From NCBI GenBank assembly GCA_964482725.1, contig CAYZYT010000003.1, positions 116,010 through 180,009 of the forward strand: 64,000 nucleotides of DNA. The letters run 5' to 3'. The position numbers were made by a program, and so were the translations under genes. How positions within the stretch are numbered: the first letter of the stretch is position 1; the number at the start of each line of letters is the position of its first letter. The notes under the pieces are model-generated. The model saw only the letters and a program-made list of their open reading frames with translations. It was not told where the DNA came from and made no database searches. This document shows positions 26,096-34,545 of this stretch, piece by piece. The stretch comes from an uncultured bacterium. GTDB taxonomy: Bacteria; Omnitrophota; Omnitrophia; Omnitrophales; Aquincolibacteriaceae.

Positions 26096-26224
26096 AAAAA
26101 CTCAGGGGCGGTTCTCGAAGGGAGCACCGTCTCTCGAATGCCTCGGAATCATGGAATTACAGTCAATACAGAATCAGAAATTTGTTTGATTTTTCGGGAT
26201 AGCTCGTTATACTCCATTCATTGT

Positions 26225-26400
26225 TCTTTGAAGAAATCAGTGATAGGTGCTGCGGAACTGCGAAAGCGGTTCACGCGGCTTGATAGGGAAGTGAGTCTCG
26301 CGGAAAGATCGCGGGAACTCCACGGTGCCGCCGCTGTAGATGAGAACGAAAGCGAAACAGCCACTGCTCCTTCGGGGGTGGGAAGGTTCGCGATTAGGAA
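26225..26400 (+). ncRNA. Cobalamin (adenosylcobalamin) riboswitch aptamer
   Basis: Conserved core AUAGGGAA (26283-26290) ... GGUGCCGCCGCUGUAGA (variant of CGGUCCCGCCACUGU) ... B12 box CAGCCACUGCUCCUUCGGGGGUGGGAAGGUUC (26358-26390). Close to the E. coli btuB leader (GACACUGCCAUUCGGUGGGAAGUC). Sits upstream of a btuB-like operon. Confidence 0.7.
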
Positions 26401-26540
26401 TGACAAAGCTCATCGAGTCAGAAGACCTGCCTGTTACACAACTCAATATTCAAAATCCTCCGTGCAGAGGAAGCAAAGGTGTCCCGATTCTCCTCTTCTG
26501 AAAATCGGGACCGCGCGGATCAATCAAATGATCCGCTGGC

Positions 26541-26578
26541 CCTTTCTTGCCGATGCCTGAGGCGGAAAGGGTTTTTTT
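26541..26578 (+). terminator. Riboswitch expression-platform intrinsic terminator immediately upstream of the receptor start codon
   Basis: Hairpin ccctttc...gaaaggg followed by a T7 run ending 1 nt before the GTG at 26579. Additional hairpins (gtcccgatt..aatcgggac; cggatca..tgatccg) could form the alternative structure. Confidence 0.6.
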
Positions 26579-28699
26579 GTGTCTGGAAATTCAAAGCTCC
26601 GGAGCGAGCATCTCCGGAAGATCAGTTTTTTGTTTCTCGCCGTTTGCCTTCTAAATATCGGATGGAGCTGGCCGTTCTCTAAAAAAAATGACGGGGAACG
26701 CAAACCTACCGTCGAAACTCAATCTATAGCGCCGATCGCTCCGAAAGCTGAAATTAAAGGCCCTCTCCGTCCCGTCGCCGCAGATGTGACGGTCCTCGAA
26801 GTTACACGAACTGAGGATCCCATTGCGAATGTGACCCGGAGTATTTCGGTCATTGATCAGGAAGAGATCCAAAATTCCACCGCTCGCTATGTGCCGGAAC
26901 TATTGAAATCCAAGGCCGGGATCACCGTGACAAATACCACCGGGAACCCCAAAGGGATGACCGTCGATATGCGCGGTTTTGGCGATACGGCAAATCGGAA
27001 CGTGCTTGTGCTTGTCGACGGCCGCCGGACAAATCCGATGGATATTTCCGGGTCGGATTGGGCCGCTATTCCACTTGAGACCGTCGAGCGCATTGAGATC
27101 ATTCGCGGGCCTTCTTCCGTGCTTTACGGGGACAATGCCGCGGGAGGTGTGATCAACGTGGTGACAAAAAAGGCCGGGCCAGGCGTTCATGCCAAGGCGG
27201 AGACTGAAATCGGATTGCATCAATACAAGCGGACGGGTGCGACAGTCTCCGGGGCTAACGACTGGGCGGACGGTCTCTTCCATTATGAAAACACACAGGA
27301 TGACGGCTGGCGCAACAATACGCAATATTGGGCGAACGACTGGTTCGGCAAGTTCGGGGTCGGGCCTTTTGAAGGAGCGGGAGTGAATTTCACTGCGGGG
27401 CATCATCGCGATCGGTATGGGTTAGCAGGCGATCTCTCTGTGGACGAAATGGCGAGCATGGGTCGAACGGGGAGTACGACTTCAAAGGATCATGCCTGGA
27501 GCCAAGAGACCTATTTCACAGCAGATCCTGAGTGGAAATTTGAGCTAGGCGAAAACGCATTTGTGATCTCCGGGTTTAACTCGTTTCAGCGCCGTTTAGC
27601 TAAGGCGGATTATGTTTCCATGGCCAGCAGTGCCGTGAACAATCTGGATTCCTATGAGTTCCAGCCCAAGATGAGCTGGGCGCGCCCTCTTACCGATTGG
27701 CTCACGAGCAAATTAACGACGGGTCTTGATTTCTTTTCAGGGAAGAATGATGTCAAAAACGTCGGGACCACGTTTACGAAGCTTGCGACCATCACCAAGA
27801 AGTCGCTGGATGTTTATGTGATCGAGAATTTTTCATTGTGGGATAAGTTGCTCTTGAATATGGGATTTCGCGGGGGCTGGGCAAAGTACCGGTTTGATCA
27901 GTCTGGGGATACGACGAACCTTGATCAGACGGGGATGCGGAATGCCTCGTTTGATTTTGGAGTCGGGTACAAAGTGTTTGAGAGGTCTCTTGCCTATTTT
28001 GATATCTCCCGTTCTTTTCGGATGCCAGCGACCGATGAATTTTACAGCACCTTCGGAAGCGGTTTGAATGCGGGTTTGAAACAGCAGCAAGAGATGGATT
28101 ATGAATTGGGTTTCCGTGACAATACATTCAAACCGTTGAATATGAGCATGAATCTCTTTCTGGCTGACATCAAAGATGAAATTTTTTATGACCCGAGTGG
28201 CGGCCCGGGAGGATGGGGGGCTAATGCGAATTACGAATCGCCGACGAGACGGTACGGATTCGAAATGGAATCCTCACTGAAACTTTTTAAAAAACGCTGG
28301 TTCAATATTACGCCGTTTTTTAACCTCACAACACAAAAGCCTTATTTTAAAGGGGGGACCTATTCGGGAAAGCACGTCCCGATGGTGCCTGATTTTAAGT
28401 ATTCCACGGGATATACCCTGGAACCCCTTAAAGGGCTGACGGTTTCGACCGAGCTGAACCATCTCGGGCACCAGTTTGCGATCAACGATCAAAAGAATAA
28501 CCTTCCAAAACTTAAAGCTTATACAGTCGTGGATATGAAGGTCCGCTATCATTGGCGATGGGCCACGGCTTGGATTTCTCTTACGAACCTTTTCAATAAA
28601 AAGTACTCAGAGTACAGCGTCGATAACTACATCGGTGGCACGGACTACTATCCGGCGCAGGGCCGCAACCTGGTCACGGGTTTTTCACTGGAGTATTAG
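26579..28699 (+). CDS. btuB: TonB-dependent outer-membrane receptor (BtuB-like cobalamin receptor)
   Basis: Plug domain (..DMRGFGDTANRNVLVLVDGRRTNPMDISGSDWAAIPLETVERIEIIRGPSSVLYGDNAAGGVINVVTKK..), 22-strand barrel region, C-terminal ..GFSLEY. Riboswitch-controlled. Start codon uncertain (GTG 26579). Confidence 0.85.
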   Translation: MSGNSKLRSEHLRKISFLFLAVCLLNIGWSWPFSKKNDGERKPTVETQSIAPIAPKAEIKGPLRPVAADVTVLEVTRTEDPIANVTRSISVIDQEEIQNSTARYVPELLKSKAGITVTNTTGNPKGMTVDMRGFGDTANRNVLVLVDGRRTNPMDISGSDWAAIPLETVERIEIIRGPSSVLYGDNAAGGVINVVTKKAGPGVHAKAETEIGLHQYKRTGATVSGANDWADGLFHYENTQDDGWRNNTQYWANDWFGKFGVGPFEGAGVNFTAGHHRDRYGLAGDLSVDEMASMGRTGSTTSKDHAWSQETYFTADPEWKFELGENAFVISGFNSFQRRLAKADYVSMASSAVNNLDSYEFQPKMSWARPLTDWLTSKLTTGLDFFSGKNDVKNVGTTFTKLATITKKSLDVYVIENFSLWDKLLLNMGFRGGWAKYRFDQSGDTTNLDQTGMRNASFDFGVGYKVFERSLAYFDISRSFRMPATDEFYSTFGSGLNAGLKQQQEMDYELGFRDNTFKPLNMSMNLFLADIKDEIFYDPSGGPGGWGANANYESPTRRYGFEMESSLKLFKKRWFNITPFFNLTTQKPYFKGGTYSGKHVPMVPDFKYSTGYTLEPLKGLTVSTELNHLGHQFAINDQKNNLPKLKAYTVVDMKVRYHWRWATAWISLTNLFNKKYSEYSVDNYIGGTDYYPAQGRNLVTGFSLEY

Positions 28700-28729
28700 G
28701 GTGTCGAGGAAATTTATTCCGGAAAGGAA

Positions 28730-29242
28730 ATGGGAGCTTATATGATCAAGGTTTTCGCTTTAGCGCTTCTGACGGTGTGCGTTTGTTTGCCGGACCTTTG
28801 CGCGCAGGAGATGGCGGGGCAGGGCTTGACGGCCCCAGAGCCGAGACAACGCTCGTCGAGTGCGATTGCGATGGCCATCCCGGGGAACGATCACAATGTC
28901 ATGCGTGTATCTTCGTCGGATTTGATTCCTCCCGCTATCCAACAACAGGCCGAGGGAGAGAGCCTTCCGCCTTTTCCCGTTCTGATGCCGAAAGCCATTG
29001 TCTATCCACGGAAAGCGATTCGTAAGGGATGGGAAGGTCAGACTGTGGTCGCCGCGGAAGTCCTTGCGGATGGGTCCGTAGGGCGAACGGCCTTGGCGAA
29101 GTCCTCCGGCCATGTAGTTTTAGATCAAGCCGCGCAAGAGGCTATCCAATCCTGGAAATTTAAAAATGAGGCTGAGACAGATGAGACTGTCCCGCAATAT
29201 GTGGATATACCGGTCACGTTCAAGCTTCAGGGCGAGGAATAA
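28730..29242 (+). CDS. tonB: TonB-family energy transducer (C-terminal TonB domain)
   Basis: Signal anchor, proline-containing linker and C-terminal TonB_C motif (..VYPRKAIRKGWEGQTVVAAEVLADGSVGRTALAKSSGHVVLDQAAQEAIQSWKFK..). Confidence 0.75.
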   Translation: MGAYMIKVFALALLTVCVCLPDLCAQEMAGQGLTAPEPRQRSSSAIAMAIPGNDHNVMRVSSSDLIPPAIQQQAEGESLPPFPVLMPKAIVYPRKAIRKGWEGQTVVAAEVLADGSVGRTALAKSSGHVVLDQAAQEAIQSWKFKNEAETDETVPQYVDIPVTFKLQGEE

Positions 29243-29244
29243 TC

Positions 29245-30198
29245 TTGAGCTCCTCTAGAAGGAAATTCTTGATTGGCTTCTTACTCTTTATTTTTTGCGC
29301 TTCAAATAGGTCGTTCACTTTTGCGGCCGATATAAAACAAGCGAGTCCCCAGAGAATCGTTTCCATCAATCTTTGTACGGATGAATTGCTCCTTCAGCTG
29401 GTGACTCCGGAACGTGTGGCGGCCCTGACGAAATTTAGCGCCGACCCTGAAGTTTCGACGGTCGCCTCTCAGGCCAGAGACATCCAAAAGATCCAGGGCG
29501 GCATCGAGGATGTTCAGGCTTGTGGCCCGGACCTTCTTGTGGGCGGAAAGTTCAGCCATAAAGAAACGCTCCGTTTTTTTGAAAGTTCCGGGATCCCGGT
29601 CTTGACGTTTGGCCTTCCCAAAAATTTCGAAGACATTTATGCGGATATTCGTAAACTTGCCACAGCGGTGGGGGAAACGGCCCGAGGGGACCAGATCATT
29701 CAAAGGATGCGATCAGATCTCGCGGCGCTCAAGCCGGAGGCCCGGCACAGCGTCGTCATTCTGAGGCCGGAGGCCGAAGAATCTAAAGATGAGATCCTTC
29801 GCCCCGGAATGGCTCAGAATGACGGAAAAAAGATTTTGAAACGCGCATTCTTTTTTCAGAGTGGGGGGCTCGTTCCAGGTTCGGGGACATTCGAGAATGC
29901 GATCATGGAAGCCGCCGGGCTTGAAAATCTTTCGGCCACGATGGGTATTCGGGATTATGGGAGCCTTTCTTTGGAAAAATTGATTGAGATGAAGCCTGAG
30001 GTTTTGATTTTCTCAAGCGATCAGAAAGAAAAACCCACTATTCGAGGGGAAGTGCTCAGTCATCCCGCGATACGGAAGGCATTGCCTCATGTAAAGACAG
30101 TGATCCTTCCGTCGGCGATCCTCAATTGCGGCTCGCCGGCCTCGGTGGAGGCCGTGAGGATTTTGGTGGAAGAGACTCAAAAATCGGAAGAGGCTTAA
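29245..30198 (+). CDS. btuF: Periplasmic substrate-binding protein, class 8 (BtuF/FecB-like) of B12/iron-complex ABC importer
   Basis: Signal peptide; ..RIVSINLCTDELLLQLV.. motif typical of BtuF/FhuD-type binding proteins. Confidence 0.75.
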   Translation: MSSSRRKFLIGFLLFIFCASNRSFTFAADIKQASPQRIVSINLCTDELLLQLVTPERVAALTKFSADPEVSTVASQARDIQKIQGGIEDVQACGPDLLVGGKFSHKETLRFFESSGIPVLTFGLPKNFEDIYADIRKLATAVGETARGDQIIQRMRSDLAALKPEARHSVVILRPEAEESKDEILRPGMAQNDGKKILKRAFFFQSGGLVPGSGTFENAIMEAAGLENLSATMGIRDYGSLSLEKLIEMKPEVLIFSSDQKEKPTIRGEVLSHPAIRKALPHVKTVILPSAILNCGSPASVEAVRILVEETQKSEEA

Positions 30199-30246
30199 AA
30201 AGCCCCAAAAGCTAAAAAGGGTTTCTTTTTTAGCCTTTCAGGCATC

Positions 30247-31284
30247 TTGAGCATTTTTAGCTTTCAGCCTAGGCGAGGATTCATGAAAAAAAATATTGGC
30301 AAAGAGCTGCCGGCCCTATGGCTTTATGGCCTGCTCGGGATCGCGCTTGCGGCAGCTTTTCTTGGGTCCTTGAATGTCGGTCCTACGAAGATCCCGCTCT
30401 GGAATGCTTTCCTCCATCCTTCGTCGGAGGGGGCTTTTATTCTCTGGGACATTCGTTTGCCACGCGCAATCTTGGGACTTTTGGTGGGAGCGACGCTCGG
30501 GCTTGCCGGTGCCGCGATGCAGGGATTTTTGCGTAATCCTTTGGCGGAACCCGGCGTGCTTGGCGTGACGGGCGGCGCGGCGCTTGGCGCAGTGCTTGTT
30601 TTTTACACCGGGCTTGCCTCGGCGTTTTCGCTGGCATTGCCCCTCGGCGGCATTTTGGGGGCATTTTTTTCCGTGCTTTTGCTCTATCTTTTTGCCGGCC
30701 GTCTCGCGAACGTTCAGACGCTGATCCTGGCGGGTGTGGCGATCAACGTGATTGCGTTCTCGGGGACTTCTCTGGTGCTCAATCTCACGAAAGATCCGTA
30801 CGCCGTTCTTGATATTGTTTTTTGGCAGATGGGTTCGCTCGCGGACCGGAGTTGGACGCATGTCTTTTTGGCGTTGCCTTTCATCCTGATCGGGTGGGGT
30901 TGGCTTTTTTGGGACCGGCGGGCGCTGGACGCGTTAAGCCTCGGCGAAGAAACGGCGGCGAGTCTTGGTCTGGATCTCAAGGCCCTGCGCCTGAGGATGA
31001 TCCTGGGGACGGCTCTTTGTGTGGGCGCGGCAGTGTCGATATGTGGAAGCATCGGTTTTGTTGGACTCGTGGTGCCGCACCTTTTGCGCCCGCTCGTGGG
31101 GCATGAACCGGGAAAACTTTTGGGCGTTAGCGCTTTGGGCGGGGCGCTGCTTCTTCTTTTATCCGATAGCGTGGTACGGCTCATTCCCTCCATGGTGGAA
31201 CTGAAGCTGGGCGTTGTGACGTCCCTGATCGGCGCGCCATTTTTCATTTTGCTGATCTTTCAGATGAGGCGGAAACTTTTATGA
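30247..31284 (+). CDS. btuC: FecCD-family ABC permease (BtuC-like)
   Basis: 10-TM FecCD pattern with conserved ..LPRAILGLLVGATLGLAGAAMQGFLRNPLAEPGVLGV..; start may be the ATG near 30283. Confidence 0.85.
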   Translation: MSIFSFQPRRGFMKKNIGKELPALWLYGLLGIALAAAFLGSLNVGPTKIPLWNAFLHPSSEGAFILWDIRLPRAILGLLVGATLGLAGAAMQGFLRNPLAEPGVLGVTGGAALGAVLVFYTGLASAFSLALPLGGILGAFFSVLLLYLFAGRLANVQTLILAGVAINVIAFSGTSLVLNLTKDPYAVLDIVFWQMGSLADRSWTHVFLALPFILIGWGWLFWDRRALDALSLGEETAASLGLDLKALRLRMILGTALCVGAAVSICGSIGFVGLVVPHLLRPLVGHEPGKLLGVSALGGALLLLLSDSVVRLIPSMVELKLGVVTSLIGAPFFILLIFQMRRKLL

Positions 31285-31292
31285 AGGGACAG

Positions 31293-31329
31293 GCACACTA
31301 AGGTAGGTCACGTTTAAACGTGACCTACC
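31293..31329. repeat. Intergenic 37-nt element with 28-bp perfect palindrome, copy 2 (between btuC-like and btuD-like)
   Basis: Identical to 7265..7301; palindrome ends 16 nt before the ATG at 31345. Confidence 0.8.
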
Positions 31330-31344
31330 TCCATTAGGATAAAT

Positions 31345-32103
31345 ATGGCGACCTTAATTGAAGCGAAAAAAATCAGCGTTTCGTTTGGCGACGTTCCGAT
31401 CCTTCAGGACGTGGACCTTGAACTCCGGAAGGGAGAAGTGCTTGGGCTTATCGGACCGAATGGCGCTGGAAAATCGACTTTGCTGAAAGTGCTTATCGGC
31501 GAAGTGACGCCGGAGTCGGGGAGTGTCAGGATCCTGGACGGGAAGAAGTCCCCACTGGCAAAAAAGGTCGCTTATTTGCCGCAAGGGCAGGTTATCCACT
31601 GGCCGCTTAGCGTGAAGCGGTTGGTTTCCCTGGGGCGCATTCCACACCTTATGCCTTGGGAGCCGTTGGGCCCGGAAGATGAGAAAGCGATCGCTCGTGC
31701 GATGGAAGATACGGACGTGACACGTCTGAAAGACCGTTTTGTTGATCATTTGGCCGGAGGCGAAAGAAATCTGGTTCTCTTAGCTCGCGCGCTTGCGACT
31801 CAACCTTCCGTGCTTTTGGCGGATGAGCCTGTTCAGGGGCTTGATCCGGCACACGGACTTCAAGTGATGGAACTTTTATCCCGGTTTGTGGACCACGAAC
31901 GGGGCGCGATCGTGGTATTGCACGATCTGACGCTTGCGGCTCGGTTTTGTCACCGGCTTGTCCTGCTCGATCAGGGAAAGGTTCTTGCCTCGGGAAAGCC
32001 CGAAGAAGTTCTTTCGCCCGAAAATCTCAAGAAGAGTTATCATGTCGAAGCTAAGTACGGAACCGGCGACGAGTTTTATATCGTGCCTTGGAGAAAGGTC
32101 TGA
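31345..32103 (+). CDS. btuD: ABC ATPase of B12/iron-complex importer (BtuD/FhuC-like)
   Basis: Walker A GPNGAGKSTLLK, signature LAGGERNLVLLARAL, Walker B LLADEP. Confidence 0.85.
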   Translation: MATLIEAKKISVSFGDVPILQDVDLELRKGEVLGLIGPNGAGKSTLLKVLIGEVTPESGSVRILDGKKSPLAKKVAYLPQGQVIHWPLSVKRLVSLGRIPHLMPWEPLGPEDEKAIARAMEDTDVTRLKDRFVDHLAGGERNLVLLARALATQPSVLLADEPVQGLDPAHGLQVMELLSRFVDHERGAIVVLHDLTLAARFCHRLVLLDQGKVLASGKPEEVLSPENLKKSYHVEAKYGTGDEFYIVPWRKV

Positions 32104-32726
32104 AAATGCGGGGAACGGGGAGCGGTCCCAATACTTTTCAATCGAAGCAAAGCGGAGATTGGGGCCGTCCTGACTACCGTCAATCAAACAAAAGCCAAAG
32201 TCAGGACGGGGAACGAGCCAAGGGAAAGAGGCGAGGGCTGATCCTTGTTTTTACCGGTGAAGGTAAAGGGAAGACGACCGCGGCGATGGGAACAGCGCTT
32301 CGAATGATCGCCCAGGGCGGGAAAGTGGGCGCAGTTCATTTTTTTAAACCCCGTACTTCGTGCGCCGTACTTGGTTCTCAATACAAGAGTTGGAGCTTTG
32401 GCGGTGGGTTCACGTGGAAGACGTCGCGGGAAGAAAATTCCGGAGCGGTCCGCCAGGCGTGGAAGAAATGCTGTGAATTATTGAAGGACCCGAAATACAG
32501 CCTTGTGATCTTTGATGAGATCCACATTGCGCTGAAATATAAATTTCTCACAACCGCCGAGGTCCTGAGCGCTCTCCAAAAAAGGCCGGCCCGCCAGCAT
32601 GTGATTCTCACCGGGCGCGGTGCTCCCAAAGCCATCCTTCGTGGGGCGGATCTCGTGACCGAGATGAAATGCGTGAAGCATCCCTTCAAGCGGGGTGTGC
32701 TCGCCCAACCTGGGATTGAATTCTAA
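32088..32726 (+). CDS. cobO: ATP:cob(I)alamin adenosyltransferase (CobO/BtuR/CobA family)
   Basis: P-loop GLILVFTGEGKGKTTAAMG and conserved C-terminal ..DEIHIALKYKFL..VLTGRGAP.. regions. The 5' end is ambiguous (TTG 32088 or ATG 32106 with a GGAGAAAGG RBS). The N-terminal ~35 codons run through a REP-like repeat. Confidence 0.8.
   Translation: MEKGLKMRGTGSGPNTFQSKQSGDWGRPDYRQSNKSQSQDGERAKGKRRGLILVFTGEGKGKTTAAMGTALRMIAQGGKVGAVHFFKPRTSCAVLGSQYKSWSFGGGFTWKTSREENSGAVRQAWKKCCELLKDPKYSLVIFDEIHIALKYKFLTTAEVLSALQKRPARQHVILTGRGAPKAILRGADLVTEMKCVKHPFKRGVLAQPGIEF
32115..32200. repeat. REP-like hairpin repeat, cggtcccaat/attggggccg family, copy 1 (inside the cobO 5' region)
   Basis: About 80% identical to 35425..35520 (agcggtcccaatacNtttc...attggggccgtcc...actacc). 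Confidence 0.6.
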
Positions 32727-32735
32727 AAAATCGTG

Positions 32736-32810
32736 GAACGGGTAACGGGAAACGGGGAACGCATGACCAAACTCGTTTGCCGTTCCCCGTTCAGCGTTCC
32801 CCGATCCTTG
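32736..32810. repeat. REP-like hairpin repeat, gggtaacgggaaacgg / ccgttccccgttcagcgttcccc family, copy 1 (downstream of cobO)
   Basis: Imperfect ~75-nt palindrome, about 80% identical to 34547..34625; a related ggcaacggtaacg...cgttaccg hairpin lies at ~33540-33650. Confidence 0.6.
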
Positions 32811-32845
32811 TCATTTTTCCCACTCTTATTTCGCCTCTCACTTGG

Positions 32846-32853
32846 TGTATAAT
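32846..32853 (+). promoter_or_regulatory. Candidate sigma70-like promoter -10 (TGTATAAT, extended -10) for the FTCD-like/folD/panB genes
   Basis: TGTATAAT motif about 40 nt upstream of ATG 32894; no convincing -35. Confidence 0.35.
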
Positions 32854-32893
32854 GCCTCTTACGGAAAACCTTTAACGTTCAGCGAGCATACAC

Positions 32894-33499
32894 ATGAAAA
32901 AATATACAGATCTCAGTCTCGAAGATTATATCGAAAAGCTTGCCAGCGATGCGCCGGTGCCGGGTGGCGGGAGCGTTTCAGCCTATGCCGGAGCTTTGGG
33001 CATGGCCCTGACGCAGATGGTTTCGCGGATCGCGCTCAAGCGAAAACCCAAAGCGGACCTTACGGCAGAGCAGAAATTCCAGGATGAAGCCAACCGGAAG
33101 CGGATGCAGGAGATCGTCGATTCGCTGGAGAAGACCCGGGCGGATGCCCTTCAGGTAGTGTCGCTCGATCCCCAAGTCTATGATGAAGTGATGGCGTGTT
33201 ACAAAGAAGGGGCGGGGCCCGAGAAACTGGAAGATGCGCTTCAGAATGCGTTCCGGCTGCAGGCGGATCTTGCGCTGATCCTTGTGATGGCAAAGGAATG
33301 GAACGAGCACATGAAAACCCTCGTAAAAGGCGCTGTCGCCAACGATCTGATCGTCAGTGACGGACTTCTCTCCGCGGCATTTGAAGGAGCTTTTCATACC
33401 GCGCATATCAATGTGGTTTACATGAAAAACAAAGAACGGAAAGAGCGTGCCGAAAAGGCGCTGGCGGAACTGAGAGGGCGTTTCACCAAGGGTGCGTAA
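32894..33499 (+). CDS. Cyclodeaminase/cyclohydrolase-family protein (FTCD C-terminal-like; formimidoyl-/methenyl-THF cyclo-enzyme)
   Basis: N-terminal LSLEDYIEKLASDAPVPGGGSVSAYAGALGMALTQMVSRIAL matches the FTCD_C/FchA signature; 201 aa. Confidence 0.75.
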   Translation: MKKYTDLSLEDYIEKLASDAPVPGGGSVSAYAGALGMALTQMVSRIALKRKPKADLTAEQKFQDEANRKRMQEIVDSLEKTRADALQVVSLDPQVYDEVMACYKEGAGPEKLEDALQNAFRLQADLALILVMAKEWNEHMKTLVKGAVANDLIVSDGLLSAAFEGAFHTAHINVVYMKNKERKERAEKALAELRGRFTKGA

Positions 33500-33690
33500 A
33501 ATCTAATATTTATTGCCGGGTGTTAAGTAACGGCAATGGTTACGAAGCCCGTATCGGAAAGGGCAACGGTAACGTAATTTAAAAGAAACGCCACCGCCTG
33601 CGAAGCGGCGGGGTCCCGCCAAAGGCGGGAAAACGGGCATCGTTACCGTAGCCGGACAACATAACTCGGGATTCATCAAAGGAGATTCAT

Positions 33691-34545
33691 GTGGAAGCGA
33701 AAAGACTTGAAGGAAAAGTAATCGCAGCGAGCCTGCAGGAAAAGATCCTTGAGAAGGTAGGGGCCGCTACAAGGGCGGGTCTTCCAAGGCCGTCTTTGGC
33801 TGCGATCCAGACGAGTGATGATCCGTCCGCAGTCTGGTATATCAACAGCCAAGAAAAACTTGCCGCAAAACTCGGCATTGATTTTCGGCGCATTATGCCT
33901 GATCAAGTGAAGGGGGAGAAAGCCCTGATCCAGAAGGTTCAGGAGCTTGGCGCCGATAAAACGGTCCATGGACTTTTCATTTCAATGCCGTTCCCCCAGG
34001 GAATTGACGCCGACAAAGTGTTGCTTGCCATGGATCCGAAAAAGGATGTCGAGGGGGTTCATCCCACAAGCCTTGGACTGATCGTTCTTCGGCGCGGCAA
34101 ACTGATCCCTCCTACGGCATTTGCCGCCTACACGCTCATTAAGGCGAGCGGCATCATGTTACGCGGGAAAAAGGCGGCAATCATCGGTCAAAGCGCCATT
34201 GTCGGAAGACCCCTCCAGCTATTGCTGGGCGAGGCACGGGTGACGACGCTTGTTTGTAATACGGGTACGGCCGAAGAAGATATGAAGAAAATCGTTGGAG
34301 CGGCTGAGATCGTAGTGGCTTGTTCGGGGAAGCCCGGTCTTGTGAAAGGCGCTTGGATCAAGCAAGGCGCGGTCGTGATCGATGTCGGGACGACTGAGGT
34401 CGACGGGAAACTCCAGGGCGATGTCGAATTCGATGAAGCGAGCAAAAAAGCCAGTTTTATTACGCCCGTCCCTGGAGGCGTGGGGCCGCTCACCGTGACC
34501 ATGCTCATGGAAAATCTTATCATTGCGTATGAATGGCAAAAATAA
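33691..34545 (+). CDS. folD: Bifunctional 5,10-methylene-THF dehydrogenase / 5,10-methenyl-THF cyclohydrolase
   Basis: Conserved FolD blocks ..GKKAAIIGQSAIVGRPLQLLL.. and ..TPVPGGVGPLTVTMLMENLI..; 284 aa. Confidence 0.9.
   Translation: MEAKRLEGKVIAASLQEKILEKVGAATRAGLPRPSLAAIQTSDDPSAVWYINSQEKLAAKLGIDFRRIMPDQVKGEKALIQKVQELGADKTVHGLFISMPFPQGIDADKVLLAMDPKKDVEGVHPTSLGLIVLRRGKLIPPTAFAAYTLIKASGIMLRGKKAAIIGQSAIVGRPLQLLLGEARVTTLVCNTGTAEEDMKKIVGAAEIVVACSGKPGLVKGAWIKQGAVVIDVGTTEVDGKLQGDVEFDEASKKASFITPVPGGVGPLTVTMLMENLIIAYEWQK

Follow-up and report, generated by a model that had tools for sequence, protein, structure and literature searches.

Several features of described cobalamin riboswitches bear on the locus analysed here. 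Expression platforms that attenuate both transcription and translation were described by Barrick and Breaker in 2007, after having been predicted for TPP and AdoCbl elements (PMC2258182). In the repressing corrinoid riboswitch of Priestia megaterium metE, a P13 hairpin stabilised by the kissing loop (KL) lets the terminator form, as proven by compensatory mutagenesis, and without ligand the 3' side of P13 pairs with the terminator's 5' side, which constitutes the antiterminator (PMC10327014). The published consensus of the aptamer loop L5 is UCCCG (PMC10327014). In AdoCbl riboswitches the kissing loop is never without one or more unpaired nucleotides, L13 has to be presented on a stem-loop, and the length of the linker lowers the rate at which the kissing loop docks (PMC5028336).

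Our analysis of a window of 64,000 nucleotides, by which we mean the whole stretch of DNA under study, points with a probability of about 0.75 to an AdoCbl-type OFF riboswitch in an Omnitrophota-like host, whose platform would combine a terminator with a Shine-Dalgarno (SD) sequestor and would control an operon for corrinoid uptake and salvage. The promoter-like site and the aptamer comprise the following features:

26186 to 26213, plus strand: sigma-70-type promoter-like site, TTGATT-16 nt-TATACT, a putative promoter with a predicted transcript start near 26220
26228 to 26448, plus strand: RF00174 aptamer (cmscan), with the B12 box GCCACUG at 26360-26366 and GGGAAGG at 26380-26386
26241 to 26248, plus strand: 5' strand of P1, UGAUAGGU, paired with GCCUGUUA at 26429-26436 in the cmscan alignment
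26326 to 26330, plus strand: L5, UGCCG, the aptamer half of the kissing loop, on a P5 of GG/CC (26324-25 / 26331-32; cmscan alignment)

A cobalamin riboswitch upstream of a TonB-dependent receptor had been proposed by an earlier, sequence-only reading of this DNA, and the covariance model bears it out. Using cmscan with Rfam 15, we obtained a match to RF00174 (Cobalamin) at 26228-26448 on the plus strand, scoring 79.7 bits where the gathering score is 31.5 (E 5.5e-18); the alignment covers model positions 1-189, meaning that the match is full-length, and it is the sole gathering-level Rfam match across the whole 64-kb window. The core motifs quoted in that reading were found in the sequence and aligned to the RF00174 consensus, and the conserved core is all there, with the GGGAA junction, CUGUA after P5, the B12 box and GGGAAGG. 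The pseudoknot-forming loops, chosen beforehand as the test of this assignment, are present as well, in the form of L5 and a complementary hairpin loop, CGUGCA, at 26461-26466.

For comparison we used 19 distinct related leaders (receptor identity 55-88%, designated by L numbers) from Omnitrophota MAGs and metagenomes, retrieved from contigs of genomes and metagenomes and by looking up homologous proteins. The closest relatives, with a receptor identity of up to 88%, are MAGs named Candidatus Omnitrophica or Omnitrophota. Thirteen related leaders also exceed the RF00174 gathering score. In relatives P1 is formed by GGUGACAGG pairing with CCUGUCRCU, its outer pairs changing compatibly, and GGUGCCGCC, which holds L5, occurs in all 18 of the related leaders that reach the aptamer (L019 ends before it). 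Upstream, the -35 and -10 hexamers and the 5' leader that follows them, UUGUUCUUUGAAGAAA, are conserved in relatives. This UUGUUCUUUGAAGAAA makes up the first ~17 nt of the predicted transcript (26220-26238), upstream of P1, and its conservation extends to many relatives.

Downstream of the leader, Pfam and NCBIfam models identify a set of genes that are separated by short gaps or overlap:

26579 to 32726, plus strand: regulated operon (Pfam and NCBIfam)
26579 to 28699, plus strand: TonB-dependent receptor, Plug and barrel (Pfam)
28730 to 29242, plus strand: TonB_C protein (Pfam/NCBIfam)
29245 to 30198, plus strand: BtuF-like periplasmic binding protein, Peripla_BP_2 (Pfam/NCBIfam)
30247 to 31284, plus strand: FecCD/BtuC-like permease (Pfam/NCBIfam)
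31345 to 32103, plus strand: ABC ATPase (Pfam/NCBIfam)
32088 to 32726, plus strand: corrinoid adenosyltransferase CobA/BtuR, which passes the NCBIfam cut-offs

No promoter-like site was found within 28600-33800. The RF00174 element lies 5' of genes for B12 transport and salvage, the location that goes with this family, and glgB is the gene upstream of the riboswitch in the window. The earlier claim of an uptake operon headed by the receptor agrees with the Pfam and NCBIfam content of the genes through CobA, which is that of B12 uptake and salvage. Its description as btuB-like holds by operon context but does not extend to the protein models, since the receptor stays below the NCBIfam cut-offs for the BtuB equivalogs TIGR01779 and NF007926 (115.9 bits against 599.7, and 86.2 against 836), with only the plug region matching. 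We therefore treat it as a generic TonB-dependent receptor, whose corrinoid specificity is suggested by its context.

Between the aptamer and the first codons of the receptor, the leader and the start of the ORF contain the following elements:

26456 to 26471, plus strand: hairpin H1, UCCUC-CGUGCA-GAGGA, a candidate P13/L13 whose loop CG-N-GCA is complementary to L5 with N bulged
26481 to 26537, plus strand: insert hairpins H2 (26481-26511) and H3 (about 26514-26537), self-contained and located in the apical loop of the predicted alternative (ON) fold
26540 to 26571, plus strand: putative terminator and ribosome-binding-site (RBS)-sequestering hairpin, with 5' arm CCCUUUCUUGCC, loop GAUGCCUGA and 3' arm GGCGGAAAGGG; 11 bp, about -15.8 kcal/mol
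26564 to 26571, plus strand: Shine-Dalgarno-like GGAAAGGG, in the lower 3' arm of that hairpin, 7 nt upstream of GTG 26579
26572 to 26578, plus strand: U7 tract, the predicted terminator tail and SD-to-start spacer
26579 to 26581, plus strand: GTG start codon of the TonB-dependent receptor, assigned by comparison, by an in-frame TGA upstream (26558) and by signal-peptide logic
26599 to 26617, plus strand: hairpin H5, CCGGAG-CGAGCAU-CUCCGG, inside the ORF (+21..+39, codons 7-13), with a CG-N-GCA loop as in H1

On folding, the segment 26450-26640 gives five hairpins (z = -3.6), and its fold was equalled by 0 of 200 shuffled versions. Folding recovered the alternative hairpins that had been noticed before, namely H1, H2 and H3. 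It also recovered the terminator-like hairpin with a U-run adjoining the GTG: the stem is followed directly by T7, and no base separates the T7 from the start codon. With CCC/GGG at the base of its stem and U7 directly after it, this hairpin has the sequence characteristics of a terminator; it was not listed by a simple consensus terminator scan of the window because its loop has 9 nt, and the scan allows 3-8. The same form is seen at 273-318 of the window in a canonical bidirectional intrinsic terminator, A8-GCGCCUCGCCG-AAUUAA-CGGCGAGGCGC-U7, located between convergent genes. An ORF at 319-1482 on the plus strand also starts with TTTTTTT GTG TCC; it is spurious, because it overlaps an 822-aa ORF (2850-382) on the minus strand. 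Viral contigs searched for the terminator/start pattern yielded 0 matches.

Conservation of these elements among the relatives is extensive. Across 18 sequences, 97.5% of the cells of the terminator hairpin are paired, with loops that differ in length and sequence and a stem that is nearly invariant; no double-sided covariation occurs in the stem among these 18 sequences, and its sole change is from U-A to U-G. All 19 related leaders have 6-8 U directly after the terminator stem, and in each of them the hairpin, the U-run and the start codon are in direct contact, although the conservation of the U-run could serve translation alone. H1 is likewise conserved in 19 of 19 leaders, as GCCUC-CG-N-GCA-GAGGU, with a loop that is invariant except for N (U, A or C) and a stem that covaries, two pairs showing double-sided changes (for example CUUC/GAAG in L020). 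H2 and H3 are common to only three leaders, those of the window, L016 and L019, with a compensatory change in H3 (GCGGAUC/GAUCCGC versus GCUGAUC/GAUCAGC); since most relatives lack both, the switch can dispense with them. In other relatives, different inserts that fold on themselves are found at one of two places, between P1 and H1 or between H1 and the terminator.

The close contact between U-run and GTG had raised the suspicion that the receptor start was wrong. Our comparison dispels it. The start codon occupies the same position in all 19 leaders (GTG in 17 of them, ATG in L005 and L024), and coding-type variation begins at this very base, with codon 2 being TCC, TCT or TCA and codons 3-7 varying freely. 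The check recommended earlier, to look for a downstream alternative start with its own RBS, turned up TTG 26630 as the sole in-frame candidate, which lacks conservation and whose use would cost the signal peptide its charged n-region. From the 19/19 conservation, the codon-type variation, the in-frame TGA at 26558 and the failure of TTG 26630 we conclude, on comparative grounds, that GTG 26579 is the true start of the receptor. Two further candidates were rejected. The GGAG inside H5 is not followed by a start codon for which it could act as RBS, and extending the ORF upstream through the hairpin, which some public gene calls do, is prevented in the window by TGA 26558, with no upstream start being conserved.

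Public gene calls differ on the start among the protein relatives of the receptor 26579-28699 (P0001-P0025). Those for P0010, P0015, P0019 and P0025 read upstream through the terminator, so that their N-termini contain ..GGKGFFVS.., which is GGCGGAAAGGGTTTTTTTGTG translated; those for P0001, P0004 and P0017 take as start an ATG two codons in, and those for P0007, P0009, P0012 and P0014 start further inside. In L023 (1096-1320), an in-frame insertion of ~35 codons separates H5 from the signal peptide's hydrophobic core, and the public gene call places the start 105 nt past the conserved GTG.

The sequence-only reading had also stated that there is no room for an RBS. This is literally true of the gap between the T-run and the GTG, but an RBS-like GGAAAGGG lies in the 3' arm of the hairpin, at a distance of 7 nt from the start codon. 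SD-like 4-mers are found at -18..-5 in 17 of the 38 ORFs in the window, compared with 4 of 38 at a control position and with 17% genome-wide, and glgB has AGAAAGGA 8 nt before its ATG. In L006, a terminator-less relative with a receptor 60% identical and its SD in a small sequestor hairpin, AAAGG-7 nt-AUG stands at the homologous place. The use of SD motifs by the window ORFs, by glgB and by L006 supports the presence of an RBS in the 3' arm of the hairpin, and the start codon would touch the U-run because the U-run doubles as the spacer between SD and start.

Because the SD lies within the stem, folding of the hairpin necessarily pairs it. As judged from the sequence, the hairpin most likely attenuates transcription and also sequesters the RBS. 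The earlier proposal of transcription attenuation of the uptake operon was thus sound as regards a terminator-like hairpin placed before the operon, but incomplete in that the hairpin also hides the SD. The switch that we propose requires one more element:

26469 to 26479, plus strand: candidate antiterminator/anti-sequestor strand GGAAGCAAAGG, formed by the 3' arm of H1 and the next 8 nt, which can pair with the terminator 5' arm CCUUUCUUGCC as suggested by constrained folding and published precedent

With B12 bound, L5 (UGCCG) of the aptamer would kiss the CG-N-GCA loop of H1, which would act as P13/L13 and be locked by this contact; the terminator/sequestor would then form and transcription would stop at the U-run, and in any mRNA resulting from read-through the SD would be buried. 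Without B12, H1 would open, its 3' arm and the purine-rich segment after it would pair with the 5' arm of the terminator, and its 5' arm (UGCCUC in most relatives) would pair with GAGGCR, the top part of the terminator 3' arm. The long alternative hairpin formed in this way would leave GAAAGGG-U7-GUG single-stranded, allowing both read-through and translation.

The two halves of this scheme can be considered separately. As for docking, bulging of N lets CG-N-GCA pair with all five bases of L5, giving 5 pairs, and a loop with a bulged N on a stem matches both of the published rules for kissing loops (PMC5028336); we infer from the sequences that H1 docks to L5. In L006 the SD lies in the single platform hairpin, whose loop, CGCGUGA, can pair with UGCCG if wobbles are allowed, and this independently identifies the CG-N-GCA-type loop as L13. 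L5 does not differ among the leaders that reach the aptamer, meaning that the pairing of L5 with L13 is not open to covariation testing in these leaders, and RNAduplex pairs the stems of L5 and the hairpins instead of their loops, so that its output is uninformative on loop pairing.

As for the alternative fold, local folding from H1 to the U-run gave two folds in 19 of 19 leaders, OFF consisting of H1 plus the terminator and ON of the long hairpin that appears when the SD is kept unpaired. Across the 19 leaders the ON fold lies 0-7.7 kcal/mol above the OFF fold or equals it (6.8 in the window), and in L020 it is the MFE structure; the lineage-specific inserts, H2 and H3 in the case of the window, fall in the apical loop of the ON helix. 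Relatives keep the purine-rich segment after H1 (CRAGACAGG). When the 11 nt that follow H1 were shuffled, the energy of the alternative fold changed little and not significantly (z from +0.5 to -2.0, with -0.17 for the window), covariation of the H1 5' arm with the terminator top was within the column-shuffle control (78/500), this pairing amounting to just 4 bp in the window, and MFE folding of whole leaders with one terminator arm blocked gave no consistent partner, whereas local folding gave one. Since the shuffle and covariation controls are not significant, we infer the ON fold by analogy with published precedent and consider it plausible. A pairing of the segment after H1 with the 3' strand of P1 (CCUGUC / GACAGG) was examined as the switch and rejected, as it is not conserved in L002-, L018-, L022- and window-type leaders and would give ON logic.

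Other explanations of the hairpin and of the start codon must be weighed against the dual platform. The hairpin might be a transcription terminator only, in which case regulation would be by pure attenuation and the GTG would be initiated without an SD, for instance through the U-rich leader. A canonical hairpin with U6-8 in 19 of 19 leaders and the use of such terminators by the genome (273-318) are in keeping with this explanation, yet a good SD-like GGAAAGGG at ideal spacing inside the stem means that folding must affect initiation, SD motifs are used in the genome, and L006 controls the same gene family by a sequestor hairpin alone; we regard a terminator without sequestration as unlikely. 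We find it quite unlikely that the hairpin is, on the contrary, an RBS sequestor only, acting on translation without any termination, with the U-run being a spacer between SD and start or an S1-binding enhancer. Spacers need no such composition as the uninterrupted U6-8 that follows a G+C-rich stem base in every leader, and the form of the hairpin is identical to that of the bona fide terminator at 273-318, even though cobalamin riboswitches in diderm bacteria, that of E. coli btuB among them, usually act on translation (PMC10327014), and L006 itself is translational. Very improbable, finally, is a mis-assigned receptor start, with the true start and its own RBS downstream and a fortuitous GTG at the U-run. 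The disagreement on the start in the relatives' public gene calls (an ATG two codons in, an internal Met or an upstream extension) would fit such an error, but it is outweighed by the constant position of the GTG or ATG in 19 of 19 leaders, by the lack of conservation of TTG 26630, by the absence of a start codon after the GGAG of H5, and by the TGA upstream. The dual terminator and sequestor thus remains our preferred reading of the platform.

One feature of the comparison, hairpin H5, lies within the coding region. In 18 sequences 100% of its cells are paired, and five of its six pairs vary, two with double-sided and three with one-sided changes; the variant of L003, CCGGAA/UUCCGG, alters amino acids (S>N and L>F). 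Third codon positions inside H5 (+21, +24, +27, +30, +36 and +39) are frozen or nearly so, and codons 3-7 vary at all positions. The loop reads CG-[A/C]-GCA-N in 18 of 19 leaders, where the variable position within the motif, the same N as in H1, is a second codon position (Glu/Ala); synonymous sites within the motif are frozen, and the third position just outside it varies. H1 and H5 share this loop motif and have unrelated stems. Within the leader and the first 60 nt of the ORF the CG-N-GCA motif occurs at just two places, H1 and H5, and 128 kb (both strands) contain 5 hairpins of at least 5 bp with a loop of this kind. H5 is not found in the terminator-less L006. As far as alignments can tell, we have here evidence for RNA-level selection on H5.

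A second docking hairpin of the L13 type may be the most economical reading of H5. Two such hairpins would serve a single L5, H1 for the termination decision and H5 for the read-through mRNA, and this we put forward tentatively, as a possibility that we rate below even odds; it is an extension of our main model and not a strict rival of it. In the read-through mRNA, in which H1 is then unfolded, the B12-bound aptamer would dock beside the start codon, and docking of H5 would block initiation, possibly followed by Rho-dependent termination or decay. Such a role would agree with the complete pairing of H5 and its compensatory changes at the expense of amino acids, with a loop motif that is identical to that of H1 and complementary to L5 in 18 of 19 leaders and that occurs just twice in the leader and the first 60 nt of the ORF, and with the frozen synonymous sites, the rarity of such hairpins and the absence of H5 where the terminator is missing (L006). 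Against it, the invariance of L5 in the leaders reaching the aptamer allows no covariation with L5, our literature search found no published precedent for a second L13 or for a kissing-loop partner in a coding region, and a linker of ~160 nt would slow docking, given that longer linkers lower the docking rate (PMC5028336). Alternatively, H5 could have an insulating or stabilising role, or offer a site to a different factor, one recognising both loops.

The relatives also differ in aptamer, platform and operon content. L020 (~1070-1305) and L021 (~1000-1233), with receptors 57% and 55% identical, have a short, class-II-like aptamer without B12 box or P6 extension, for which no Rfam match at gathering level was obtained, and they keep the GGUGCCGCC L5, H1, the terminator-U-run-GTG arrangement and H5. 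A short aptamer joined to the same platform points to aptamer exchange, and the aptamer type thus appears to have been exchanged on a constant expression platform. L003, L016 and L023 have the full cobalamin core motifs (CACGGUGCCGCCGCUGU, GGGAAGG and GUCAGAAUAUC) but no RF00174 match at gathering score, likely due to large insertions in peripheral helices. The platform of L006 (3853-4006) is purely translational, consisting of the hairpin UUUUCCUU-CGCGUGA-AAGGUAAAA followed by AUG, with neither U-run nor H5, and a second cobalamin riboswitch is located ~3 kb upstream on the same contig (942-1132). Downstream of the receptor, L021 (3467-4641) carries CobU and CobT (DBI_PRT) instead of TonB and BtuF, and L018 (3320-4548) is without the TonB-like gene. 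The gene glgB is the upstream neighbour in several relatives, not in all.

These results confirm a B12 riboswitch in the poorly studied candidate phylum Omnitrophota and fix the start codon of its receptor, which public gene callers have placed wrongly in several relatives. The apparent paradox of a terminator touching a start codon would be explained by the known dual design of terminator and RBS sequestor. The clade offers a natural series for the study of platform modularity, the same platform being joined to a long or a short aptamer and insert hairpins being present or absent. If H5 were indeed a second L13, one aptamer would have two alternative kissing-loop partners and would regulate first transcription and then translation. 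This would amount to a cobalamin riboswitch with two checkpoints, the second sensor element being encoded in, and constraining, protein-coding sequence, such that riboswitch elements would impose RNA-level selection on the region coding for the signal peptide.

Compared with described systems, the arrangement at 26540-26581 is that of the dual platform of Barrick and Breaker (PMC2258182), from which nothing essential differs, except that spacing in the window is the minimum possible, the U-run making up the whole spacer from SD to start, and that it is strictly conserved across the clade. With RF00174 elements of class I, such as the E. coli btuB leader, the locus shares a full-length model match with B12 box, L5 and peripheral extension, a location upstream of an operon for a TonB-dependent corrinoid receptor and a presumed OFF logic. 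It departs from the published consensus in its L5, which is UGCCG instead of UCCCG, the candidate L13 being changed to match; unlike E. coli btuB, which is described as translational, its platform carries an intrinsic terminator, and its host is Omnitrophota-like. As in P. megaterium metE (PMC10327014), an L5-L13 kissing loop would stabilise a small P13 hairpin, the switch in the window being presumed by analogy. In contrast to metE, however, the terminator 3' arm can also pair, at its top, with the 5' side of P13, a bulged N is present in L13, and the terminator is predicted to hold the SD. The unpaired nucleotide in the kissing loop and an L13 stem-loop near the translation start are shared with the translational riboswitches env8HyCbl and E. 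coli btuB (PMC5028336), and L006 follows their design, with the SD in the 3' arm of P13. The locus differs from them in that the L13-type loop occurs twice, in H1 before the terminator and in H5 within the ORF, and neither hairpin contains the SD. Overall, the locus represents a known riboswitch class with a known dual platform in a new lineage, and the one thing in it that might surprise a specialist is H5 with its L13-like loop.
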